Made by a program: the position numbers and the translations under genes. A stretch of 64,000 nucleotides of DNA from an uncultured Acidobacteriota bacterium (GTDB lineage: Bacteria; Acidobacteriota; UBA6911; RPQK01; JAPXNP01), in the NCBI GenBank assembly GCA_963777605.1, contig CAVZRV010000027.1, positions 512,001-576,000 on the forward strand. Direction: 5' to 3'. The stretch's first letter is position 1. Every line of letters begins with the position of its first letter. Below, one piece after another: positions 42,115 through 54,232 of this stretch. The notes under the pieces were generated by a model, which saw only the letters and a list, made by a program, of their open reading frames with translations, did not search any database and had not been told where the DNA came from.

Positions 42115-44442
42115 TCAACGCTCAGGCCATCGGAGATGCTTGCGGAGAAACCTGAAGCTGGCTTCCCCGTTAATGCTGTGCCCTCCCTGAAAGAATTCAA
42201 TCTCGGTTCGGTCGGCAAGACCAAACTGAGCGTACAGCCAGCGGACCTTGGCGTACTCGTGGGCGACCCACTGGTCACGGCCCACCAGGTCGAGGTGCCC
42301 CCGTTCCACCATGAAGGGTCGCGGCAACATCAGGTAGGCCATTTCGGCGTAGTCGAATGTTTGACCCAGGTTCCAGTAGGGCATCTCCCACTCGATCGTC
42401 CGCATAAAACTGAACGGTTGGTCGGTTGACGCCACCTTGCGCGTCCACTGATTGAAATCACCCGACACGATGGACAGGCAGTAGCCTTCCAGGATCGGAG
42501 GCACTCGAACCCCGGTTTCTCCTCCATAACTCAAGCCGTAGAACGCGATTCGCTCCGAATCAACGAAGGGGAGTGTCCCCAGCCACCGAAGGATCTGGTC
42601 GTGCTGGGCAATAATGAATGAGAATAGCGTCGCCCCTACCGAGTTGGCTTTGCGATCGAGCCAGCGATAGCGATCTTCCCCCCGATACAGGTTGTAGGGG
42701 GCAAAAGTCACGAAGCCTTCTTCTGCCAATCGCGCCGCGAAGTTGTTATAGGCCGAGTCGTTGCCATCAATCGTGTCGCGGGGAAGCCCATTGCGGCCAT
42801 GCTGGCAGACGACGAGAGGGCGCCTCTCCCCCGGCTGGAGGTCCTTGGGCACCACCAGGACGCCCCAGGCAAACAGATCGGGCCAGACGTCCAGCACCAC
42901 ATCGTAAGCCACCCAGTCCTTCGTCTCGAGGATCTTCCGGCTGCGGGGATCCGGAGCCAGGAAAGGGATGTCGAACCGCCCCATGGCTTCATCGTAGAAA
43001 CGTGTCCGAAATGCCCGGGCTCCCTCGATGAACTTCGCGGCCGAATGGATCGGCAGACTTTTTTCGGTGGTCCAATGCAGATCGGTCAGTTCGGGCATTA
43101 CCGCATTCAGGAAGAACCGATCTCTCACGTGTTCAGAGGCCCGGACCAAACCCTGCACATGGCGCTCGAGCTGGCCGATCGCCCGACGATGCCGCACGGC
43201 GGGATCGAAACGTTGCCTCAAGTCGGTCGGCCTGGATTCCGAAGCAGGCGGTGGCACATTGATCGAGAGGGATCGGGCAAAGGCTTTCAACGCCGCCGGG
43301 GATCCGGGCCCAACAGGATCTCCGTCCTCGCCGATGATCAATTCCGGACCCGGGACGTCGGGCAGACGAGCGATCCGGGAGAACTCGACCTCTACGGAAT
43401 GTCCGTCAGGAGTACCCCACTCTCCTTTCTGATCCGTGATTCGAGGCACCGGACTGTGCTCAATGACGAGCCCACGAGGACAGATCATCGAGGCGATCTC
43501 GGCATCACCGAACCGGCGCAACAGGCTCCAGACGTTGCGGTAGATCGGTTCGGCCCAGACCCGCTGCCGTGAATCGAAGTATCCACTGACCAAAGCACTG
43601 TCGATCCGGGGATCGAGGGCAGCCGCGTAAAAGGCGATCAGGCCCCCTTCAGCATACCCACAGACACCGATCCTGGCTTCGTCGCCATACTTTTGATGGA
43701 ACCAGTCCACCGCCCCGAGAACCTTCTGGACCTCGTACCCGATCGGGTGACGCCCCATGTGAAAGGCCTGCCGGTAGATCCATTCCCTCCAAGTCTGGTG
43801 GGTTTCCCGAATTTGAGGGTCGCCGGTCTCGACAAGTCCCCGGGAGACCAGGACGGGAATCACGACTTCGATCCCGCTTTGCGCCAGCAATCGAGCGTAC
43901 TGTCGTTCAGGAGGCAAACCCGCCCCAAGGCCCAGGATCTGTTCGGGCGTCAGGTCGGCATCAGGGACGGCAACGACATGGGCTCGCGCAGTTGTAACCG
44001 GCTGGACCAGCAAGCCCTCACCGTCTACCCCGTCGAGGACTGGCCAGCGCACCTGGAACACTCGATAGAGTGCGGTTTCAGCAACAAGTGCAGGGTTGGA
44101 ATCGTCCCCGAAGCGTTCCATCCCGGGAGTCGAGCGGCGGTCCACGCAGCCGATGATCTCGGCCAGCCGCTTCCGATTGGATTCGACGAACTGGTTGTGT
44201 TCCGCGACTGCCTTACCGTCACTTTCCCAGTATCTGGAGCGTTGGCGGGCCGCTTCGGCAATTCGTTCTTCGACGAAACGGTGCGCGCCATCCATCAGGC
44301 GGCCGGAAAAATCCTCACCCTCCCACTCCAGGGCCCGAGTTCCGGGCAGGACGTCGCTCCCGGACCCGGACACCTGACTTGCGGAGACCGCCGGCAACGC
44401 CAGCAGTAGCAAAACGAACGATCGAAGGAGTCTCGCCAGCAC
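42115..44442 (-). CDS. Secreted tandem alpha/beta hydrolase (dienelactone hydrolase-like)
   Basis: Two alpha/beta hydrolase domains (GYAEGG and GLSYGG elbows), VCQHG and GGHSING. Confidence 0.8.
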   Translation of the reverse strand: MLARLLRSFVLLLLALPAVSASQVSGSGSDVLPGTRALEWEGEDFSGRLMDGAHRFVEERIAEAARQRSRYWESDGKAVAEHNQFVESNRKRLAEIIGCVDRRSTPGMERFGDDSNPALVAETALYRVFQVRWPVLDGVDGEGLLVQPVTTARAHVVAVPDADLTPEQILGLGAGLPPERQYARLLAQSGIEVVIPVLVSRGLVETGDPQIRETHQTWREWIYRQAFHMGRHPIGYEVQKVLGAVDWFHQKYGDEARIGVCGYAEGGLIAFYAAALDPRIDSALVSGYFDSRQRVWAEPIYRNVWSLLRRFGDAEIASMICPRGLVIEHSPVPRITDQKGEWGTPDGHSVEVEFSRIARLPDVPGPELIIGEDGDPVGPGSPAALKAFARSLSINVPPPASESRPTDLRQRFDPAVRHRRAIGQLERHVQGLVRASEHVRDRFFLNAVMPELTDLHWTTEKSLPIHSAAKFIEGARAFRTRFYDEAMGRFDIPFLAPDPRSRKILETKDWVAYDVVLDVWPDLFAWGVLVVPKDLQPGERRPLVVCQHGRNGLPRDTIDGNDSAYNNFAARLAEEGFVTFAPYNLYRGEDRYRWLDRKANSVGATLFSFIIAQHDQILRWLGTLPFVDSERIAFYGLSYGGETGVRVPPILEGYCLSIVSGDFNQWTRKVASTDQPFSFMRTIEWEMPYWNLGQTFDYAEMAYLMLPRPFMVERGHLDLVGRDQWVAHEYAKVRWLYAQFGLADRTEIEFFQGGHSINGEASFRFLRKHLRWPER

Positions 44443-44464: not shown

Positions 44465-45217
44465 TCAGAGACCCGTCACTCTGCGCCAGGTTTGGGCCAT
44501 CAATGCGTGCCCCGCAACCGTTGGATGAACCCCGTCGGAAGCCCAGTATTCGGGTGGCGCCTGTCTGACAGCCTCGTCAAACATGGATTGAAAGGGAACC
44601 CAGATCAAATTCAGTTCCTGCGCCAGCTTGGCAGCGACGGCACGCCGCTGGTCGAACTCCGGAAACCAGCGATCGTTGACGGCTCCACAGCGCAGAACGA
44701 ACGGTTCACAGATCACGATCCGAACTTGGGGCAGCGCAGTAAGCGTGGACAACAGGAGATCCCTGTAACCGCTTTCGTAGTCTTCGACGGTGCCGTCATA
44801 CTGCCCGTTCAGCTTGTGCCAAATGTCATTCACCCCGACCAGGATGCTGAGCACGGCAGGATTCAGATCCAAAGCGTCCGATTCCCACCGAGCCGCCAGA
44901 TCCGGAACCTTGTTCCCGCTGATCCCTCGGTTGTAGACCTTCAGGTGCAGGCTCGCGTGGTCCGCCAGCAGGTCCCCTGCCAACAACAACGGATACCCTC
45001 CACCGAGTGCAGCCCGATCGTTGGCATCCGACTTTTCCCGGTTCCTGCCGGCATCGGTGATCGAGTCACCCTGAAACAGCACGGTAGCGTCGGCAGACAG
45101 CGTAATTGCCGCCGATTTCTTTCCGGCACAGCCCGACAACGCAATCGCACTTCCGGCAGCCAGTGATGCTCCGACAAACACTCGACGGTTCAACTTCAAG
45201 TTCAGCGATTCAGCCAC
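44465..45217 (-). CDS. Tat-exported SGNH/GDSL hydrolase
   Basis: NRRVFV Tat-like motif; GDSITD, NRGISG, GVND and DGVHP. Confidence 0.92.
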   Translation of the reverse strand: MAESLNLKLNRRVFVGASLAAGSAIALSGCAGKKSAAITLSADATVLFQGDSITDAGRNREKSDANDRAALGGGYPLLLAGDLLADHASLHLKVYNRGISGNKVPDLAARWESDALDLNPAVLSILVGVNDIWHKLNGQYDGTVEDYESGYRDLLLSTLTALPQVRIVICEPFVLRCGAVNDRWFPEFDQRRAVAAKLAQELNLIWVPFQSMFDEAVRQAPPEYWASDGVHPTVAGHALMAQTWRRVTGL

Positions 45218-45542
45218 GGTTCACCCCCAATCACACTTTAATGACGACATCCTAACAGGACGCAGTCGTTCCGTCCTGCCTCAACCAGCCAAAATCTCAC
45301 TCGAGGAAGCACACTCTGGCTCCAAACGCAGGGACATTTGCCCGGATCGAGTCGATTTGGGTCTCCGAAATTGCAGCAGCGGTTCTTAACATTTTCGATA
45401 AATCGCATGTGCCATTAATGTGACTTTCGGCCTAAAGGAAGTATCTCGTTGCGTCGATATTGAGTCCGTAGCGAGGTCCAATTCTGGGTCAGCCAGGATC
45501 TGGACAACCTTCATAGATCACGATCTTGCAAGAGGAGAGGAA

Positions 45543-46532
45543 ATGGCACCGAAGCCTAAACTGAGTGTGTACTGGGCTGCGTCTTGCGGTGGGTGTGAGA
45601 TCGCGGTCGTGAACCTTCACGAGCGAATTCTCGACCTTGATGCCGCCTTCGACTTCTTCTTCTGCCCCTGCCTGCTTGACACGAAGGTCGCCGAAGTAGA
45701 ATCGCTGCCCGACCAGGGGATCGCCGTGACTTTGTTCAACGGGGCCATTCGCAGCAGCGACAACGAGGAAATGGCCCAACTGATGCGCCGCAAATCGGAA
45801 ATTCTGATTGCCTTCGGTTCCTGCGCCTGTGATGGCTGCATTCCGGGTCTCAGCAATCTCCATGACCCGGAGGCAACCTTCCGAACGGTCTATCTCGAAA
45901 ACCCATCCGTCGACAATCCGGAACGCCTTGTGCCCCAACCGAGCGTCACCGTCCCGGAAGGAACGCTCGAACTTCCGGTGTTCTACCCGAGGGTCAAGAC
46001 TCTCGCGGACGTGGTGCCGGTCGACTACTTCATTCCCGGCTGCCCACCCGAGTCCTTTCAGATCTGGAACGCCCTGGAAACGCTCCTTTCCGGCCAGGAT
46101 CTCCCTCCCAGAGGGAGTACGCTCGGAGCAGGGGATTCGACCGTTTGTAACGAATGTCGGCGGACGAAGGGAGACAAGGAGATCACCCGCCTGCGCCGAC
46201 CGTATGAATTCGAACCGGATCCCGAACTATGCCTCCTCGAACAGGGACTGGTCTGCATGGGCATCGCCACAGCCGACGGATGTGGTGCCCTCTGCCCCGA
46301 CGTAAACATGCCCTGTACGGGCTGCTACGGTCCCCCGAAGGGGACCTCCGACCAGGGAGCGGCAATGATCGGTGCCCTGGGTGGAATGCTGAACATCGAG
46401 ACTGGAAAGCGCTTGAGCGAGGCTGAACTGGCGAGGAGGATCGATGGCATTCTCGAGGCCATTCCCGACTTCGCCGGCTCGTTCTACAAGTACAGCCTGC
46501 CGGGCTCAACGCTGAAGGGGAAACGCCAGTGA
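45543..46532 (+). CDS. mvhG: F420-non-reducing (group 3c) [NiFe] hydrogenase small subunit
   Basis: ATG at 45543 after GAGG; SCGGCE, FGSCA..GCIPGL, IPGCPP, VCNEC, CLLEQGLVCMG, CGALCP and PCTGCYG. Confidence 0.9.
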   Translation: MAPKPKLSVYWAASCGGCEIAVVNLHERILDLDAAFDFFFCPCLLDTKVAEVESLPDQGIAVTLFNGAIRSSDNEEMAQLMRRKSEILIAFGSCACDGCIPGLSNLHDPEATFRTVYLENPSVDNPERLVPQPSVTVPEGTLELPVFYPRVKTLADVVPVDYFIPGCPPESFQIWNALETLLSGQDLPPRGSTLGAGDSTVCNECRRTKGDKEITRLRRPYEFEPDPELCLLEQGLVCMGIATADGCGALCPDVNMPCTGCYGPPKGTSDQGAAMIGALGGMLNIETGKRLSEAELARRIDGILEAIPDFAGSFYKYSLPGSTLKGKRQ

Positions 46533-48013
46533 AACGCATCGTAATCAACCCGATCACCCGACTCGAAGGCCACGGAAAGATCGACATCTTCCTCGACGAC
46601 AATGGTGACGTCGCCAACGCCTACTTCCAGGTCCCGGAACTGAGGGGCTTCGAGCAATTCTGTGTCGGGCGCCATGCTGAAGAGATGCCGGTCATCACCA
46701 GTCGGATCTGTGGTGTCTGCCCCGAGGCGCATCATCTGGCCGCGGTAAAGGCACTCGATCAACTCTTTGGCGTGGAACCTCCCCCCGCCGCCCGGAAGAT
46801 CAGGGAACTCCTCTACTCGGCGTTCTTCGTAACGGACCACACGACCCACTTCTACGCTCTCGGCGGGCCAGACTTCATCGTCGGGCCGGACGCCCCTCCG
46901 CAGGAGCGGAATATCCTCGGCGTAGCCCGCAAAGTCGGACTCGAAGTCGCTGGCCAGGTCATCGGCTGTCGGTCCAGGAACCACGACGTCATCAAACGCC
47001 TCGGAGGGAGAAGCATCCATCCGACGGCCGGAGTCCCCGGGGGATGGAGCAAGCCGATTTCCGAAGAACTGCGCACCGATATCGTGCAAGTGGCGCGGGA
47101 AAATGTCGAGTTTGCACTCTTCAGCCTGCAGGTTTTCGAGTCGATCGTTCTCAAGAACCCGGCCTATCTCGAATTGATTTCGTCCGATCTTTACCTGCAC
47201 TGCACCTATTCGATGGGAACCGTCGACGATCAGAACCGCGCCAATTTCTACGACGGCAAGATTCGAGTGGTCGACCCGGATGGACGGGAGTTTGCGAAAT
47301 ATTATCCGCAGGACTATCGCGACCATATTGCCGAGCGCGTCGAACCCTGGACCTATCTGAAGTTCCCCTATCTGAAGAAGGTGGGATGGAAGGGCCTCGT
47401 GGACGGAATCGACAGCGGTGTCTACACGGCAACTCCACTTTCCCGCCTCAACGTTTCGGATGGCATGGCGACTCCAAGAGCCCAGGCGGAATTCGAAAAA
47501 TTCTACGAGGCCTTCGGCTCAAAGAAGAGCAACGGACGTTACCAGCCAGTCCATCACCGACTGGCAACCCACTGGGCCCGTCTAGTGGAACTGCTCTACG
47601 CTGCTGAACGAATGCTGGAACTGGCGGAAGATCCCGAAATCACCGATCCAAGGGTGCGGCAGATTCCCGAGGCGATCGTCGGAGAAGGAATCGGCAGCGT
47701 TGAGGCCCCTCGCGGGACGCTGACCCACCACTATGTCTCCGACGAACGCGGCATTCTCAAGATGGTGAACCTGGTGGTCGGAACGACCAACAACTACGCC
47801 CCCATCGCAATGTCGATTAAACGCGCCGCGCAAGGCCTGATCCGAAATGGAACAGTGATCGAAGAAGGGATTCTCAACCGAATTGAGATGGCCTTTCGAC
47901 TCTACGATCCCTGCCTTTCGTGTGCCACGCATGCACTTCCGGGCAAGATGCCCCTCTCGGTCACGCTGCGCACTCCTGACGGAGAAACCGTTCGGAGCTT
48001 CCGAAGGAACTGA
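46529..48013 (+). CDS. mvhA: Group 3c [NiFe] hydrogenase large subunit
   Basis: PITRLEGH, L1 SRICGVCPEAH, EAPRGTL and L2 DPCLSCATH with a cleavable C-terminal tail. Confidence 0.93.
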   Translation: MKRIVINPITRLEGHGKIDIFLDDNGDVANAYFQVPELRGFEQFCVGRHAEEMPVITSRICGVCPEAHHLAAVKALDQLFGVEPPPAARKIRELLYSAFFVTDHTTHFYALGGPDFIVGPDAPPQERNILGVARKVGLEVAGQVIGCRSRNHDVIKRLGGRSIHPTAGVPGGWSKPISEELRTDIVQVARENVEFALFSLQVFESIVLKNPAYLELISSDLYLHCTYSMGTVDDQNRANFYDGKIRVVDPDGREFAKYYPQDYRDHIAERVEPWTYLKFPYLKKVGWKGLVDGIDSGVYTATPLSRLNVSDGMATPRAQAEFEKFYEAFGSKKSNGRYQPVHHRLATHWARLVELLYAAERMLELAEDPEITDPRVRQIPEAIVGEGIGSVEAPRGTLTHHYVSDERGILKMVNLVVGTTNNYAPIAMSIKRAAQGLIRNGTVIEEGILNRIEMAFRLYDPCLSCATHALPGKMPLSVTLRTPDGETVRSFRRN

Positions 48014-48020
48014 TAAGACG

Positions 48021-48521
48021 ATGCCAACCGTGGTGATCGGACTCGGAAACTCTCTACTCTCCGACGATGGTCTAGGACCGCACGTCGTCTCCCAACTGAG
48101 GCGTGAAGTTCCGGAGACCGAGGATCGAGTCTACAAGACGGTCTCAGTGGGCGGGATCGAACTGATGACGGAACTGATCGGTTTCGATCGCGCGATCATC
48201 GTCGACGCCATGGTGACCGGTTGCGCTCAACCCGGAACCGTTACGCGGATCGAACTCAGTTCGCTGATATCAACCTGCAACCTCAACTCCACCCACGACG
48301 CCAATCTCGGAACCGCCCTGGAAATGGGTGGCCTGCTCGGACTCTCACTACCCTCGGATGTCGAGGTGTGGGGTGTTGAGGCCAACGACGTGGAAACCTT
48401 TAGTGAAACCCTCTCGCCGGAAGTCGATTCGGCTCTACCCGAACTGGTTTCGGAAATCCGGAATTTCCTCAGTCGACCCCAGGATTCCGGAGTGAGAGTT
48501 CAGGCAAAGAGGAAAATATGA
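48021..48521 (+). CDS. Hydrogenase maturation endopeptidase (HycI/HybD family)
   Basis: VIGLGNSLLSDDGLG, IIVDA, STHD and LSPEV. Confidence 0.92.
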   Translation: MPTVVIGLGNSLLSDDGLGPHVVSQLRREVPETEDRVYKTVSVGGIELMTELIGFDRAIIVDAMVTGCAQPGTVTRIELSSLISTCNLNSTHDANLGTALEMGGLLGLSLPSDVEVWGVEANDVETFSETLSPEVDSALPELVSEIRNFLSRPQDSGVRVQAKRKI

Positions 48522-50503
48522 AATCAACCCAAGCTCAGTGCCAGGGGACGGCAGTCTACCTGTGCCAGTGTGGAACGATCATTCCCGAACGGGTCGACCT
48601 CGAGAAGGTCCGGTCGGCCGCTGAAACTCTTCCGGAAGTCGCTTACGTTGAGACCGTTGAATTCCTCTGTTCCGAAGAAGGCAAAGACCAACTGCGGCAA
48701 GATCTGCAGACACGCAAACCCGCGCGGGTCGTTCTGGCCGCATGCTCGCCGAGAGACCACGAGGGGACGTTTCGCAAGGTTCTCGCTGAGGCAGACATCA
48801 ATCCCTACCTGCTGCAGATCGCGAACGTAAGGGAACAGATTGCCTGGGTGACCGAAGATTCGGAGCAGGCAACCCAAAAGACCTTCCAGTACGTGCGAGC
48901 CGCAGTCTCACGGGTTCAACTTCACGAACCGCTGGAAGACGAGGTCATCGACGCCAACTCGAATGTTCTCGTGCTGGGAGCCGGGCCGGCCGGGCTCAAG
49001 GCCGCCGTCACGGCCGCCCAGGCGGGAAGGGACGTGGTCCTGGTCGAAAAGTCATCCCATATCGGCGGACTCCCGGTTCTCTACGAGGAGGTCTTTCCGG
49101 CCATGGAGTGCGGCCCCTGCATGTTGGAGCCTCTCGAAGACGAACTCCTTCATGGAGCCGCTTCGACCCACATCGAGATCCTCACCGAATCTGAACTCGA
49201 GGGCGTCGAGGGTTTTTACGGGAATTTCATTGCCCATATCCGGAAGGCGCCCGCATTTGTGAACCCTGCCGAGTGCATCGGGTGCGGGATGTGCATCGAA
49301 GTGTGTCCGGTTGCGGAATCCGAGCAGACACCCCTGGGAGAGTTCGAGAGGGCGGCGATATCTTTCTCCTTCCCCGGTTCTCTGCCGGCAATTCCAGTTC
49401 TGAATCCCGCTGTCTGCCTGCGATGGAGTGGCGGCGAGTGCGACGAGTGCCAGACCTCCTGTCCGATCCCCGGAGTCATCGACTTCGACGCCCAGGCCCG
49501 AACACTCGATCGCTCGGTGGGAGCCGTCATCGTCGCCGTTGGATCTCGGCTTTTCGACTGCAGCGAGATACCGAACCTGGCGTACGGGATCCTGAAAGAC
49601 GTCTACACGAACCTGGACTTCGAACGGATGCTGGCGTCGAACGGGCCCACCGCCGGTGAGATCAGCACCTCGCAGGGTGACCCACCCTCGTCGGTCGCCT
49701 TCATTCACTGCGTCGGCAGCCTCGACGCCGAACGCCGGGAGTACTGTTCGGGGATCTGCTGTCAGGAAGCCCTCAAGCTCAACCACATGCTCAGAAAACG
49801 CATGCCGGATGTCCGGCTGACTCACTTCTACAAGGAAATGGTGGCTCCCGGGAAGGAAGAATTCGCCCTCTGCAGTGAAGCGCACAGCGACCCGAACACC
49901 CGATTCGTCCGTTACGAAGAAATCGAAAAAATCCAGGTCTCCGACGGCAGCAACGGCAGAACGATAACCGTTTCCGGGAATGGCGCGGAAACGAAGCAAG
50001 TCGCAGCCGACATGGTCGTCCTCTGCCCCGCGGTGGTCCCCGGGGAGTCGGCCCGAAACCTGAGCGAACTCCTTGGAGTCAAACAGGACCGTTGGGGCTT
50101 CTTTGATTCGCTGCACAGCCGAATGAGTTCGAGCAGCAGCAGTATTCGAGGAGTCTATCTGGCCGGCTCCTGCCAGGCGCCAATGAATATTACTCAGGCC
50201 ATTAACCAGGGGATGGCCGCAACCGCCCAGTTTCTCTCCGGACTCGCTCCCGGAAAGCAACTCGAGGTCAGCCCTGTCGTGGCCTCTGTGCATGAGGAGT
50301 TTTGCTCGGGTTGTCGCATCTGCGTTTCCGTCTGCCCTTACAGGGCGATCCGATTGGCGGAAGATTCGGGTAAAGCCCGGGTCAACAAAGTGCTTTGCAT
50401 GGGTTGCGGGACCTGCGTTGCGTCGTGTCCCTCGGGGGCGATGCAGGGGAATCACTTTACCGGCGATCAAATACTCGCGGAGATTCAGGGGGTGTTGGGA
50501 TGA
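48518..50503 (+). CDS. hdrA: Heterodisulfide reductase subunit A-like flavo-FeS protein
   Basis: CQCG, AACSP, ANVREQIAWV, GAGPAG, two ferredoxin inserts (CIGCGMC..CP; CSGCRIC..CP; CMGCGTC..CP), FERML and HCVGS..YCSGICC..ALK. Confidence 0.92.
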   Translation: MKSTQAQCQGTAVYLCQCGTIIPERVDLEKVRSAAETLPEVAYVETVEFLCSEEGKDQLRQDLQTRKPARVVLAACSPRDHEGTFRKVLAEADINPYLLQIANVREQIAWVTEDSEQATQKTFQYVRAAVSRVQLHEPLEDEVIDANSNVLVLGAGPAGLKAAVTAAQAGRDVVLVEKSSHIGGLPVLYEEVFPAMECGPCMLEPLEDELLHGAASTHIEILTESELEGVEGFYGNFIAHIRKAPAFVNPAECIGCGMCIEVCPVAESEQTPLGEFERAAISFSFPGSLPAIPVLNPAVCLRWSGGECDECQTSCPIPGVIDFDAQARTLDRSVGAVIVAVGSRLFDCSEIPNLAYGILKDVYTNLDFERMLASNGPTAGEISTSQGDPPSSVAFIHCVGSLDAERREYCSGICCQEALKLNHMLRKRMPDVRLTHFYKEMVAPGKEEFALCSEAHSDPNTRFVRYEEIEKIQVSDGSNGRTITVSGNGAETKQVAADMVVLCPAVVPGESARNLSELLGVKQDRWGFFDSLHSRMSSSSSSIRGVYLAGSCQAPMNITQAINQGMAATAQFLSGLAPGKQLEVSPVVASVHEEFCSGCRICVSVCPYRAIRLAEDSGKARVNKVLCMGCGTCVASCPSGAMQGNHFTGDQILAEIQGVLG

Positions 50504-50940
50504 GTCGTTTCAGGCCAAGAATCGTGGGCTTTTTGTGCAATTGGTGTTCATACGCTGCAGCCGATTCAGCTGGGAGCGCGCAGAATCCCTATCCCCCCAA
50601 CGTCAGCATGATTCGCGTCATGTGCAGCGGCCGGGTCGAGCCGGAATTCATACTCGAGTCCCTGCGCAAGGGAGCCGACGGCGTCCTGATTCTCGCCTGT
50701 CACCCCGGGGATTGCCACTACAAAGAAGGCAATTTTCGAGCGGTCCAGCGCCACCGCATCCTGCTGAAACTGCTTCAGCAATTTGGGATCGACGAGCGGC
50801 GCTGTCGATTTGACTACGCTTCTGCTGGTGAGGGGGACAAATTTGTGCGGATAATCTCCGAAATGGTTGAGACTGTGCGGGAACTTGGTCCCCTGCACCA
50901 GTCGTCAGACAACTCCCCGGCCGAGACAATCGCGCTCTGA
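50500..50940 (+). CDS. mvhD: Hydrogenase 2Fe-2S delta subunit
   Basis: ATG at 50500 overlaps the hdrA stop; IVGFLCNWCSY, RVMCSGRV, GADGV, CHPGDCHY and SAGEG. Confidence 0.94.
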   Translation: MSRFRPRIVGFLCNWCSYAAADSAGSAQNPYPPNVSMIRVMCSGRVEPEFILESLRKGADGVLILACHPGDCHYKEGNFRAVQRHRILLKLLQQFGIDERRCRFDYASAGEGDKFVRIISEMVETVRELGPLHQSSDNSPAETIAL

Positions 50941-50990
50941 TAGCGCCTCAGTCCAGTAGGGTTCTAAAGACGGAAGGAGTAATTTTAACA

Positions 50991-51212
50991 ATGGCTTTGG
51001 TTAAATTGGACTTTCGAGGTTTGAAATGCCCGTTGCCCACGCTCAAAATGACGGGTGCAGTGATAAAGCTCTCCAAGGGTGACATTATGGAAGTTTCCGC
51101 AGACTGCCCCTCATTTGAGAACGACCTCAAAGGCTTCACTGCGAGAACTCACACGACAATGCTCTGGCTTCGCGACCAGGGAACCTTCAAGGTTTGCCAG
51201 ATCCGGAAGTAA
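50991..51212 (+). CDS. tusA: TusA/SirA-family sulfur carrier
   Basis: AAGGAG RBS; LDFRGLKCPLP (CPxP), GDIMEVSADCPSF and C-terminal IRK. Confidence 0.85.
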   Translation: MALVKLDFRGLKCPLPTLKMTGAVIKLSKGDIMEVSADCPSFENDLKGFTARTHTTMLWLRDQGTFKVCQIRK

Positions 51213-51218
51213 ACACCC

Positions 51219-52799
51219 TCAGCCTCGCGACGATTCCGACTGGATTCGCCGGAGACCGGGCAGGATCGTTCCCAGCGAGACCGGCCCGGAGTCCGGACGT
51301 CCCAAGCCGAAGTAGAGTTTCCGAAAGTAGCCGTACAATTCATCATAGACCGGCCGGGCCGAACTGTCCGGCTCAATCACGCGGTAGTCGGGACAGAGGG
51401 CGTCCTGGGCTTCTTCGATAGTCTGAAACGTCCCGGCCGCCAGGAACGCGAAGATGGCCGAACCCAGGCTGGTCACTTCCTGCCTGGGAACGAGAACCGG
51501 TTTCTGGAGCACATTTGCGTAGACCTGGTTCAAGACCTCGTTCTTCTGGGGAATACCCCCTCCGTTAATTACCCGGTTGATGGCCACGCCGTGTTTCGCC
51601 ATCCGTTCCAGGATGACGCGGGTATGCATCGCGGTGCCTTCGATTGCGGCGAACAGTTCATCCTGCGCCGTGTGAGTGAGATTCCAACCCAGCGTTACTC
51701 CACCGAGTTCCGCGTTGACCAGAACGGTACGGTCGCCGTTGTCCCAGCTCATGCGCAGGAGGCCGCTCTGACCGGGCCGGTATTTCTCCAGCCCCTTCGA
51801 CAACTCCGCAACCGAGGTCCCGGCCCTGCGGGCGATAGCATCAAAGATGTCACCCGTCGCAGAGAGCCCCGCTTCGATGCCGTAATAATCAGGATGGATC
51901 GATCCTTTCACAACGCCGCAGACCCCGGGTATCAGATCCACCTCGCGGGCAATCGCCATGATGCAGGTTGAAGTGCCCACTACGTTAACGACGTCCCCTT
52001 CCCGGACGCCGGCACCGATGGCGTCCCAGTGGGCATCGAAAGCCCCCACCGGAACGGGAATCCCGGCCTTGAGTCCGAGCTTTCCGGCCCACTCCTCGCT
52101 TAAGGAACCGGCAATGAGATCGGAGGTCGAATAGCGGCCGCCCAGTTTCTCTCTGACCCCGTCCAGGAGCGGATCGACCGCAGCCAGAAATTCCCCGGAG
52201 GGAAATCCGCCAAGACTCTCGTTCCACATCCACTTGTGCCCCATGGCACAAATGCTTCTCGGAAGATCTTCCGGCTCGCGAATCCCGCAGAGAACTGCCG
52301 CGACCATGTCGCAGTGTTCGATAGCCGTGACCATCTCCTGTCGCCGTCCGGGGTTGTTTCTGAGCCAGTGCAGCAACTTCGCAAATCCCCACTCGGAGGA
52401 ATAGACCCCGCCATACCAGCGAATCGCCTCGAGTTCCTGCTCGTTCGCCAGCGCCGTGATCTCACCGGCTTCCCGGCTGGCACGGTGGTCGCACCAGAGG
52501 TAGTAGTCATCGAGCGGTTCGAGGCTCGCACCGAGAGGGAGGACGGTAGAACCGGTCGTGTCGATCGCGATCGCCGCGACACGTTCCCCAGGGACACCGG
52601 CAGCGGTAAGAGCCTTCCGGGTAGCACGGATCAGGGCGTCCATGTGATCGCTGTGGCGCTGGGTGGCATGATCCGGGTCCTCTCTCCTGCGTAGCAACGG
52701 GAACTCGGCGGTCGCCGACCCGATGCGCCCCTTCTCGCTGTCCACGATCGACACGCGAACGCTCAGCGTCCCAAAGTCCACTCCCGCAACAATGGCCAT
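51219..52799 (-). CDS. araB: Ribulokinase (FGGY family)
   Basis: GVDFGTLSVR, DTTGST, LWCDH, YSSEW, AMGHK, DAH, GTSTC, EAGLSA and WDNGDR. Confidence 0.9.
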   Translation of the reverse strand: MAIVAGVDFGTLSVRVSIVDSEKGRIGSATAEFPLLRRREDPDHATQRHSDHMDALIRATRKALTAAGVPGERVAAIAIDTTGSTVLPLGASLEPLDDYYLWCDHRASREAGEITALANEQELEAIRWYGGVYSSEWGFAKLLHWLRNNPGRRQEMVTAIEHCDMVAAVLCGIREPEDLPRSICAMGHKWMWNESLGGFPSGEFLAAVDPLLDGVREKLGGRYSTSDLIAGSLSEEWAGKLGLKAGIPVPVGAFDAHWDAIGAGVREGDVVNVVGTSTCIMAIAREVDLIPGVCGVVKGSIHPDYYGIEAGLSATGDIFDAIARRAGTSVAELSKGLEKYRPGQSGLLRMSWDNGDRTVLVNAELGGVTLGWNLTHTAQDELFAAIEGTAMHTRVILERMAKHGVAINRVINGGGIPQKNEVLNQVYANVLQKPVLVPRQEVTSLGSAIFAFLAAGTFQTIEEAQDALCPDYRVIEPDSSARPVYDELYGYFRKLYFGLGRPDSGPVSLGTILPGLRRIQSESSRG

Positions 52800-52818: not shown

Positions 52819-54232
52819 TTATTCGTGGAAGTAGATGTCCCATCCCAGGTATTTCGTCGTCGCCTCGTAGAACACACGCGAAACCGAAGAGAGGTTGGCA
52901 GCGACATGGTGTTCGAAACCGTTTTCGCAGATGAAGTGGAGCAATTCCTGGAGGCCCGGAATCTCGGCCACGCCGTAACCACCGAAAGTCTTAAGGGAGT
53001 CGTCGGTGAAGCGACCCTCGCCGACATATCCGCAGATCATTCCGTTCAGGTCGTCCGTCGAGACTCGGGCAAAGGTCATCGGGGCCGCCTTGACACGGCC
53101 CACAACGGTCCCGAAGGTGGATTCCTTCCCCACCGAGCCGGCGATGATTTCCTGGTAATCCATCACCACGTCCTCGAAGAAGTGCTTCGGAAGGTTCGAG
53201 CAGTGGAAGCAGACTGCCTTGTCGGGGTCGTCACCGTAATTGTTGTTCCAATCGAGCAATGCACTCGGTGTCCCCGAAGCGAGCTGGAGTCCGTACATCG
53301 CGACGACGCCACACACATCGACTTCGCAGGCCGACGGGATGAGGGAGTCGCTCATCATGCTCATCATGGTGCACGGAACGACGCCGTAGTAAGTCTCAAT
53401 CGCCGTCCAGCACTGGACCGCACTCATCACCACCTCGACTTCTTCCATCCACTCTTCAACGACCGCGGAAAGCTTGGCCATCCGCATGAGCGCCTCGGAA
53501 GGCACCCCCGCCGTCGAAACGTAGTCCTGAATCTGCTGCAGCTTCCGCTGGACGGCGCCGTCCGAGTCGGGACGCTTCTGGATGCGCCCCATGATTTCCG
53601 AGAGATCGACCGTTTCAACCGCGATCCCGGCATTCTCAAGGAGTTTCTCACTGTAGCGAACGGTGTTGAACGCGGCCGGACGGGCACCGATTGCACCGAT
53701 CCGCGCACCCTTCAATCCCCCCGCAACGCGGCACACTCCACTAAACCAATCCAGATCGCGCGCAAACTCGCCGGAGTCGAGATCGACGGTGTGCGAGTGA
53801 GTCAGCGAGAACGGGATGCCATATTGCCGCAAGTTGTTACAGGCCGACATCTTCCCGCAGAAACTGTCACGGCGCGCCTTGATCGACATATCCGAAGTTG
53901 AGTCGGGGCTGGCCTGAATCGAGCACCGGGACGTCCAACCCGGCCATCCTCAGGGTCTCAGCAACGGCCTTCTCATCCCCAAAGTTGGGAAGAGTCACGA
54001 GGACCCCGTCAATCTCCTCCCGGTGCTTCTTGAACAGATCGGCACACTTCCGGGCCTCTGCACGGGTCTCAACAGCTCCAAACTTGGTCTCTTCCGGAGT
54101 GACACAAACCGCGCGGATACCTGCCTTCTCCAAAACCTTCAGCACCTGCTCTCGGCCTTCACGAGCCAATTCATCCGGGAAGAACCCACGATTTCCGACA
54201 ATGACACCCATCGTCATCTGTTTATTCATCAT
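52819..54232 (-). CDS. L-fucose/L-arabinose isomerase-family protein; frameshift at about 53905
   Basis: N-part GNRGFFP..LPNFGDE (ORF 53867..54241) joins RRDSFCGKMS, QCW, ACEVD, FHCSN and GFEHH (ORF 52819..53889). Confidence 0.85.

Follow-up and report, generated by a model that had tools for sequence, protein, structure and literature searches.

A group 3c-like hydrogenase-HdrA operon without HdrB or HdrC carries a TusA-like protein as a candidate thiol-side partner

Where do the electrons of a bacterial heterodisulfide reductase-type hydrogenase go when the subunits that reduce the heterodisulfide are missing? Bacterial group 3c [NiFe]-hydrogenases are usually annotated as "heterodisulfide reductase-linked"; to our knowledge, bacteria do not contain the heterodisulfide of coenzymes M and B (CoM-S-S-CoB). 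The question is raised here by a six-gene operon, mvhG-mvhA-protease-hdrA-mvhD-tusA, located in a 64,000-nucleotide stretch (the window) of contig CAVZRV010000027.1 from an uncultured Acidobacteriota bacterium (assembly GCA_963777605.1). We estimate a probability of about one half that its TusA-like protein serves, on the thiol side, as the functional partner of an Mvh-HdrA enzyme devoid of HdrB and HdrC. Together with at least 50 related loci, the window locus represents a widespread HdrBC-free form in which the only conserved extra gene encodes a two-cysteine protein of the TusA fold, and it provides a concrete candidate for the acceptor or signal carrier of a bacterial HdrA.

The operon and the search for HdrB and HdrC

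The operon comprises the following features, all on the forward strand.

45543..46532, +, mvhG, group 3c-like [NiFe]-hydrogenase small subunit (PF01058, Oxidored_q6, 78 bits; NF045875 VhuG, 200 bits)
46529..48013, +, mvhA, [NiFe]-hydrogenase large subunit (PF00374, NiFeSe_Hases, 114 bits; NF041785 VhuA, 370 bits)
48021..48521, +, hydrogenase maturation endopeptidase (PF01750, HycI; TIGR00072, 105 bits)
48518..50503, +, hdrA, tusA-linked subfamily, flavin adenine dinucleotide (FAD) and six [4Fe-4S] motifs (NF040770 HdrA2, best NCBIfam model, 558 bits; 5odc_A, 440 bits)
50500..50940, +, mvhD, [2Fe-2S] connector subunit (PF02662, FlpD, 168 bits)
50972..50979, +, Shine-Dalgarno sequence GGAAGGAG of tusA, read directly, 11 nt before the ATG
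50991..51212, +, tusA-like gene of the two-Cys subfamily, 73 aa (PF01206, 43 bits)

Three start/stop overlaps connect the genes: GTGA at 46529-46532 (mvhG/mvhA, where GTG is the mvhA start codon overlapping the mvhG stop), ATGA at 48518-48521 (protease/hdrA) and ATGA at 50500-50503 (hdrA/mvhD). The six same-strand genes and the three overlaps that a preliminary description of this DNA had listed were thus all found in the window. The mvhG ATG has GGAGAGG upstream, and the remaining gaps measure 7 nt (mvhA-protease) and 50 nt (mvhD-tusA). A site scan of positions 45000-51600 returned three terminator-like sites (6.9 expected) and two promoter-like sites (1.6 expected), with neither kind in the mvhD-tusA gap; nothing there points to tusA being transcribed separately. 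The genes form an operon with translational coupling.

Both metal-binding cysteine motifs of MvhA, RICGVC and DPCLSCATH, are present in the translation, the latter followed by a C-terminal extension, while its score with the VhuA model (370 bits) stays below the 800-bit equivalog cut-off. The small subunit MvhG and the [2Fe-2S] subunit MvhD of the MvhAGD-HdrABC type are both present. MvhA shares 58-72% identity with the MvhAs of canonical clusters and 70-76% with tusA-linked ones; the hydrogenase part is, judged by its sequence, an ordinary group 3c enzyme. It also looks able to mature, with HypD encoded in the genome and the protease in the operon.

The preliminary description had seen neither hdrB nor hdrC in the locus, and this was confirmed. 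By that description, a co-expressed hdrBC elsewhere would have counted against its reading; the whole genome (G000; 6.73 Mb, 53 contigs, 96.7% complete) was searched with the CCG-domain profile and by tblastn, which revealed neither gene. The CCG domain (PF02754) occurs in two proteins genome-wide: LutA, encoded in a complete lutABC lactate-utilisation operon (L005:9445-12494, contig C35), and a 1199-aa DUF3683-FAD_binding_4-FAD-oxidase_C-Fer4-CCG fusion (L006:5422-9021, contig C15). Three canonical HdrBs of the same phylum gave no tblastn match in the genome, and two same-phylum HdrCs gave at best weak matches to ferredoxin motifs (E 3e-4). The mvhD and tusA of the operon are the sole FlpD-family and TusA-family genes of the genome. 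Because neither HdrC nor HdrB is there, the TusA-like protein is the only conserved candidate for the thiol side.

Conservation of the HdrA-TusA pair

The linkage was examined from both of its sides. When related loci were reached through HdrA, tusA stood beside the HdrA of the window's type in five of five cases (L008, L027, L028, L058 and L059). None of these five had hdrB or hdrC nearby, whereas hdrB and/or hdrC lay within 1.5 kb in 27 of the 33 other HdrA loci; the gene order in hdrBC-linked loci is hdrC-hdrB-hdrA-mvhD-mvhG-mvhA. A search of genome contigs for HdrA of more than 45% identity yielded two loci, both with the module: one in a Nitrospira metagenome-assembled genome (MAG), with the gene order of the window (L027, 51%), and one in a Solibacteraceae MAG, with tusA relocated to a place before mvhG (L028, 49%). 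HdrA was detected at E<=1e-90 in 59 of 401 genomes of the window's phylum, and the best two among the 29 other places read in this survey (L058, 50%, and L059, 43%) have the order mvhA-protease-hdrA-mvhD-tusA. In the best match among 40 relatives (L008; same taxonomic order, 39-40% identity), the order is mvhD-hdrA-tusA.

From the side of TusA, a profile search of the same 401 genomes found this type of protein in six. In five of them the gene adjoins mvhD/hdrA, two showing the further order tusA-mvhD-hdrA, and in the remaining one it adjoins a REC-GGDEF gene. Metagenome contigs were scanned for the motif ADC[PSA][ST]FExD, which gave 479 confirmed matches, and the best 80 loci were read. Fifty-six of these 80 have tusA beside HdrA-type genes, 46 with Mvh/HdrA/MvhD genes (38 with MvhD plus HdrA or hydrogenase, eight cut by the contig end) and ten with a ferredoxin and HdrA. 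In the latter ten, tusA lies directly downstream of a gene for an HdrA-like protein of about 600 aa, a 75-84-aa 2x[4Fe-4S] ferredoxin precedes HdrA, and neither MvhD nor hydrogenase is found. These ferredoxin-HdrA-tusA loci suggest that HdrA and TusA are the conserved core, with an exchangeable electron donor, either hydrogenase via MvhD or ferredoxin. The survey thus showed the tusA linkage to be conserved in homologous loci, rearranged gene orders included. HdrB/hdrC genes occur in two of the 80 loci (L132 and L145), where they are part of a second, canonical cluster just downstream. These second clusters (L132:2967-7174 and L145:3534-9533) read hdrC-hdrB-hdrA-mvhD-mvhA(-protease) right after the tusA-type module, and no mvhG was detected in the gap of about 140 nt between their mvhD and mvhA.

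The positions in HdrA and TusA that recur in the comparisons below are as follows.

49109..49120, +, HdrA Cys198-Gly-Pro-Cys201 motif (alignment of linked HdrA groups)
50024..50026, +, HdrA Cys503 codon (column comparison of HdrA groups)
51027..51029, +, TusA Cys13 codon, GLKCPLP, the canonical CPxP active-site Cys (invariant in alignments A1, A2 and A4)
51105..51107, +, TusA Cys39 codon, ADCPSFEND (invariant in alignments A1, A2 and A4)

The HdrA of the window aligns over its full length with that of M. thermolithotrophicus (5odc_A, 440 bits) and retains all Cys motifs of the N-terminal, thioredoxin-reductase-like, inserted-ferredoxin and C-terminal ferredoxin parts. That the Glu (FERML) and Lys (CCQEALK) motifs are kept, as are the two ferredoxin-type domains, had been stated earlier and was borne out by the same alignment; across 24 tusA-linked HdrAs neither residue nor any cluster Cys motif varies. 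Identity to hdrBC-linked HdrAs is 33-40%. In a quick LG+G4 tree of 67 HdrA sequences, whose groups were sampled in different ways, the hdrBC-linked sequences form one clan (26 rows, support 100), as do those from ferredoxin-HdrA-tusA loci (seven rows, support 100). Of 34 rows linked to both tusA and Mvh, 33 group together with a value of 90 in the Shimodaira-Hasegawa-like approximate likelihood ratio test (SH-aLRT); the window is among them, on a long end branch (0.57), and L008 stands apart on a long branch.

Three stretches distinguish both tusA-linked groups from the hdrBC-linked one: C-(G/A)-P-C versus C-(S/A)-x-C at 198-201, GSLD versus GSRD at 400-403, and L-C503-P-A versus L-A-x-A at 502-505. 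Residue 503 is Cys in 97% of the 34 tusA+Mvh rows and in seven of seven ferredoxin-HdrA-tusA rows, and Ala in 81% of the 26 hdrBC-linked rows. By these sequence features, the tusA-linked HdrA is a separate subfamily that keeps the FAD and six cluster motifs. Cys201 aligns with Cys197 of 5odc_A and, in seven of seven HdrAs of relatives that were checked, with an in-frame TGA (selenocysteine, Sec). These canonical hdrAs (L009, L012, L068, L074, L078, L079 and L086) have one TGA each, and since it falls at the second Cys of the flavin-side CxxC, the seven are probably selenoproteins at this site. A 2026 cryo-electron microscopy study of the M. maripaludis super-assembly describes density bridging Cys and Sec197 between cluster A3 and FAD (PMC13518236). 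In the section of it available to us, a redox-active disulfide or selenenylsulfide is proposed, as in thioredoxin reductases, and the question is left open. It is at this very site that the tusA-linked HdrAs carry a thioredoxin-like C-x-P-C.

In the TusA-like partner, Cys13 (GLKCPxP) and Cys39 (ADCxxFExD) were present in all six proteins first collected, and C13, P14, P16, A37, D38, C39, F42, E43 and D45 are invariant in 24 Mvh-linked TusAs. A profile search returned 1958 clusters at E<=1e-5; all 120 of the matches listed have both Cys, and 118 of these are 73 aa long. Source names among the matches listed include Thermodesulfovibrio, Dissulfurispiraceae, Geobacter sp. OR-1, Nitrospirae, Bacteroidota and Desulfobacteraceae. 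The AlphaFold2 model of the window protein (predicted local distance difference test score, pLDDT, 84) superimposes on E. coli TusA (3lvj_C) with a template modelling (TM) score of 0.88 and a root-mean-square deviation of 1.3 A. Model and Pfam match agree on the beta-alpha-beta-alpha-beta-beta fold of the family, with the CPxP Cys at the start of helix 1. Helix 15-25 begins shortly after Cys13, and Cys39 falls in the stretch that separates strand 32-37 from helix 42-53.

In solved structures the motif around the second Cys, ADCPSF in the window, corresponds to ADDPAT in E. coli TusA and SDCPQS in E. coli YedF. The window protein lacks the further-on Cys of E. coli TusA (the "WC" of most family members), which PMC11094781, in the part accessible to us, describes as dispensable for sulfur transfer. 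Its scores of 27.6 bits with the classical TusA equivalog NF001423 (cut-off 78) and 31.1 bits with YedF NF008242 (cut-off 79), still its best NCBIfam match, fall far short of both thresholds. By these NCBIfam cut-offs it is neither classical TusA nor YedF; by its sequence it is a member of a large two-Cys subfamily, and with two Cys a persulfide is no more likely than a dithiol/disulfide couple. A Rosetta-stone search of longer proteins did not turn up any in which TusA is joined to HdrA or MvhD, a kind of result that carries little weight as evidence. It returned proteins of other kinds: the 714-aa metagenomic protein P0127, a sensor kinase of PAS-PAS-HisKA-HATPase architecture, ends in a two-Cys TusA domain (TADCPTFERD), and P0121 (742 aa) and P0122 (824 aa, named from a Myxococcales MAG) consist of six or seven tandem TusA domains, most of which have CPxP and an ordinary ADDP and none the ADC Cys.

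A possible electron route and its alternatives

The electron route from the hydrogenase through MvhG and MvhD to the HdrA flavin is established for MvhAGD-HdrABC. We propose that group-3c-type MvhA/MvhG, MvhD and HdrA of the window form a self-contained cytoplasmic complex in which TusA would replace HdrC/HdrB and the heterodisulfide. MvhA would split H2, and the conserved motifs suggest that the electrons would arrive at the flavin of HdrA by way of the clusters of MvhG and the [2Fe-2S] centre of MvhD. From there they could reach the flavin-adjacent Cys198-x-Pro-Cys201 pair and, by thiol-disulfide exchange in the manner of thioredoxin reductase and thioredoxin, Cys13/Cys39 of TusA, held either as a disulfide or as a Cys13 persulfide, whose reduction would yield H2S. 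Cys503 of HdrA might also hand reducing equivalents to TusA. The reaction could run in the reverse direction as well, and reduced TusA may serve as a metabolic sink, a thiol reductant or a signal.

The preliminary description had inferred a possible H2-driven bifurcation onto a sulfur carrier, a reading that the present results support in part. With the inserted ferredoxin domain and thus the low-potential branch intact, bifurcation with transfer of the second electron to ferredoxin is possible; we regard it as plausible from the sequence, with the odds somewhat against it. Whether it would be favourable depends on the potential of the TusA couple. The potential of CoM-S-S-CoB has been revised to -281 mV according to the part of PMC12054007 at our disposal, so a low-potential disulfide would not be unprecedented. 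A complex prediction with HdrA, TusA and FAD, made from the window sequences without alignments, scored 0.00 and is no evidence either way. If H2 does reduce TusA with co-reduction of ferredoxin, the module would be the smallest known Hdr-type bifurcating system. Its composition points to an undescribed transfer of electrons from hydrogen to a protein thiol switch.

Several points weigh against TusA being this partner. The proposal is built on sequence and model evidence, and the proximity of Cys13 and Cys39, apparently near enough for a disulfide, was deduced from the fold. The HdrA features common to both tusA-linked groups may reflect inheritance from a single ancestor and not independent correlations. 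The 80 metagenome loci were picked by the ADC motif and include near-duplicates and many short contigs; in 24 of them tusA has no HdrA or other query match in the DNA read, several of these having short upstream flanks. Since the genome has no match to DsrC/TusE or to YeeE/YedE (Sulf_transp) and only one to the DsrE family, a route for loading TusA with persulfide is not evident. Finally, the frequent signalling genes beside related modules indicate that energy conservation may not be the purpose.

The last point leads to the most serious rival, a role in sensing H2 or redox state, which came up unexpectedly and is absent from the preliminary description. Here the module would report the cytoplasmic H2 or redox state, and the redox or persulfide state of TusA, or its binding, would be the output to signalling proteins; in the window's genome the signalling partner would be unlinked. 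In molecular terms this overlaps with our proposal, because HdrA may still reduce TusA, and the two differ in purpose, a signal as against a sink or energy conservation. On this tentative reading, the module would be a new kind of cytoplasmic H2 or redox sensor: a group 3c hydrogenase of catalytic type would set the thiol state of a two-Cys TusA via the HdrA flavin and C-x-P-C, and the TusA relay would switch sensor-less chemoreceptors, histidine kinases, diguanylate cyclases or stressosome-like modules, with outputs differing by lineage. Overall, we consider a sensory purpose possible but doubtful.

The evidence for it comes from neighbouring genes, which were tallied by tblastn with Pfam-verified queries, adjacency being defined as within 300 bp of the module. 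An adjacent signalling gene was found in 23 of 52 Mvh/HdrA/MvhD-linked loci, and in 12 of the 20 among them whose sequence extends 1 kb or more to each side. The 23 comprise 11 methyl-accepting chemotaxis proteins (MCPs), seven Hpt-REC-GGDEF proteins and, for the rest, REC, CheA or CheW. The MCP genes lie directly upstream in 11 loci, L027 and L028 included. Their products have MCPsignal, some together with HAMP, and no domain that could be recognised as a sensor; in L028 the start of tusA overlaps the stop of the MCP gene. Hpt-REC-GGDEF genes lie directly downstream of tusA in seven loci, CheW lies within 5 kb in six, and CheA-type and CheB-like genes occur in some of the same clusters. In G296 a REC-GGDEF gene follows tusA, and in L089, which comes in addition to the 23, a STAS-STAS-kinase-PP2C-kinase partner-switching set begins 62 nt after tusA. 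In another TusA subgroup (27 loci), an operon of Peripla_BP_6, sCache-PAS kinase and response regulator comes directly after tusA, overlapping where read, and P0127 combines a PAS histidine kinase and a two-Cys TusA domain in one chain. Among seven canonical hdrCBA-mvhDGA loci used as a control, one had an adjacent signalling gene and none an MCP or CheW. The G. sulfurreducens Mvh cluster GSU2416-2423 also lists an MCP, "MvhV", in the excerpts available of PMC7894505 and PMC8691401. A module feeding chemoreceptors or kinases would be a new route of H2 or cellular redox sensing.

Against a sensory purpose stands, in the first place, the window itself, where, as in L087, L146 and L195, these queries found no signalling gene up to 5 kb away from the module. 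L089 was likewise negative within 5 kb by the tallied queries, its STAS set being found on reading. MCPs and a CheA exist in the window's genome, none of them near the module. Furthermore, a maturation protease is encoded in the operon and MvhA is extended at its C-terminus as catalytic hydrogenases are; we know of no group 2b sensory hydrogenase with either. An HdrA with six clusters is elaborate for a sensor, two-component genes beside a metabolic operon often merely regulate that operon, and no conserved Cys was found in the MCPs upstream of the module. The tally itself has to be read with care, as the control set comprises few loci and those tallied are not independent of one another.

Two observations concern these neighbourhoods. 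L089 (L089:8673-11643, in G040, of the same taxonomic order as the window) carries mvhD-hdrA-tusA with no hydrogenase genes on its 11.8-kb contig, and its stressosome-like set consists of STAS, STAS, a HATPase_c_2 kinase, a PP2C/SpoIIE phosphatase and a second kinase. On low-GC metagenome contigs (L128, L137, L139, L140, L143, L147, L150 and L158), a conserved apparent operon with overlapping stops and starts contains a 2x[4Fe-4S] ferredoxin, a 600-aa HdrA-like protein, tusA, Peripla_BP_6, an sCache/HAMP/PAS histidine kinase and a response regulator.

A further alternative is that the TusA-like protein has an accessory task, such as sulfur delivery, cluster repair, assembly or protection of HdrA, while the enzyme uses another acceptor; it could then work as an H2:ferredoxin or ferredoxin:H+ enzyme without bifurcation, or with an unlinked soluble thiol/disulfide. 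As the sole TusA-family gene of the genome, tusA might have general duties, and members of the TusA family are known to carry sulfur into cofactor and iron-sulfur-related pathways, as the accessible text of PMC11094781 relates. Canonical Mvh-Hdr clusters with the same cofactors, however, work without TusA, and the linkage is kept in the hydrogenase-free ferredoxin-HdrA-tusA loci. A specific partnership, rather than a general sulfur supply, is also what the second invariant Cys and the changes in HdrA that track tusA linkage speak for. We hold an accessory role to be improbable. That one of the two unlinked CCG proteins, although the only ones in the genome, substitutes for HdrB/HdrC is very unlikely, because LutA and the fusion, which resembles a D-lactate/2-hydroxyacid dehydrogenase, belong to known contexts of their own, hdrBC near tusA is confined to the two loci where it comes with its own HdrA, and the HdrA subfamily of the window is separate from the hdrBC-linked one.

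Known systems and genomic surroundings

The closest characterised relative is MvhAGD-HdrABC, the H2:CoB-CoM heterodisulfide, ferredoxin reductase of methanogens (PDB 5odc and 8rvu). Both systems have the hydrogenase subunits, MvhD and a FAD-containing HdrA, and their HdrAs agree in the six [4Fe-4S] Cys motifs, in the Glu and Lys positions and in having an inserted as well as a C-terminal ferredoxin domain. They differ in that two defining features, HdrB and HdrC, are missing from the window locus and its genome, in the order mvhGA-protease-hdrA-mvhD-tusA instead of hdrCBA-mvhDGA, and in the C-x-P-C, GSLD and Cys503 of the window HdrA and its TusA-like partner.

An HdrA-type flavoprotein linked to a TusA-family gene is also found in the sHdr system of Hyphomicrobium and Aquifex, as outlined in the portion of PMC11094781 open to us, and in both cases the Hdr module would be expected to carry out sulfur or thiol chemistry. 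According to the same text, sHdr has HdrB1/B2/C1/C2, needs LbpA and DsrE3 and works without hydrogenase or MvhD, whereas no CCG proteins of the HdrB/C type, and thus no sHdrB1/B2/C1/C2, occur in the window's genome. The TusA classes given there are TusA, YedF, YeeD, rDsr-linked and sHdr-linked, with no Mvh/HdrA-linked class in that portion. A full-text literature search found no description of an Mvh-HdrA-TusA module, although key reviews could still mention one; the papers containing both HdrA and TusA dealt with sHdr sulfur oxidation or unrelated loci.

The parallel with thioredoxin reductase and thioredoxin is one of working principle only. Both pairs combine a flavoprotein of the thioredoxin-reductase fold, having a flavin-adjacent C-x-x-C (C-G-P-C here), with a small two-Cys protein to which it is genetically tied in the module. 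In the window, however, the small protein has the TusA fold with its Cys 26 residues apart, the electrons would come from H2 via iron-sulfur clusters and not from NADPH, and the exchange is proposed by analogy. E. coli YedF (PDB 1je3) has in common with the window protein the TusA fold and the second Cys (SDCPQS versus ADCPSF), but it is paired with YedE, a family not found in the window's genome. Classical E. coli TusA has Asp at the ADDP position and a TusE/DsrC-type partner, whereas the window protein has Cys and no DsrC/TusE match accompanies it in the genome.

The group 2b hydrogenases HupUV/HoxBC resemble the related loci as cytoplasmic [NiFe] enzymes beside signalling genes. They belong to another hydrogenase group, and the HdrA-MvhD-TusA relay, the protease and the C-terminal extension are found here. 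In addition, their single dedicated kinase contrasts with the MCP, GGDEF, STAS and kinase outputs of the tusA modules. The G. sulfurreducens GSU2416-2423 cluster is an eight-gene bacterial Mvh cluster that includes the MCP MvhV in the source passages seen, while no MCP adjoins the window operon. Geobacter sp. OR-1 is the source name of one close homologue of the two-Cys TusA (P0050); the identity of the GSU2416-2423 cluster with the present module is a lead, not a result.

Elsewhere in the genome, the best CheA-like match with a receiver-domain gene beside it lies at C27:501636-505122, about 52 kb before the operon and just outside the window. A second [NiFe] hydrogenase locus (G000 contig C8:40319-44881) contains open reading frames of 607, 238 and 207 aa followed by a 479-aa PF00374 large subunit; by the sizes and order of its four genes it looks like a Hox-type NAD-linked enzyme. 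For expression of the operon, no RNA run was listed for the locus, the matches being two soil DNA runs with 6-7% of words.

The operon is flanked by two genes on the reverse strand.

44465-45217, -, divergent GDSL/SGNH gene, 5' flank (Pfam)
51219-52799, -, convergent FGGY-family kinase, 3' flank, ends 6 nt after the tusA stop (Pfam)

The flanks thus agree with the preliminary description as regards the divergent SGNH gene and the convergent kinase, but its naming of the latter as araB is supported to the level of the FGGY family only. A GDSL gene also neighbours the module of G083, and the two genes are unrelated (E 2.9), so this common neighbour is a coincidence. Farther out, the 775-aa product of a gene at 42115-44442 (-) weakly matches dienelactone hydrolase and peptidase S9, and a gene at 52819-53889 (-) encodes a protein with an L-fucose-isomerase C-domain; these neighbours are compatible with a polymer- or sugar-degrading lifestyle.

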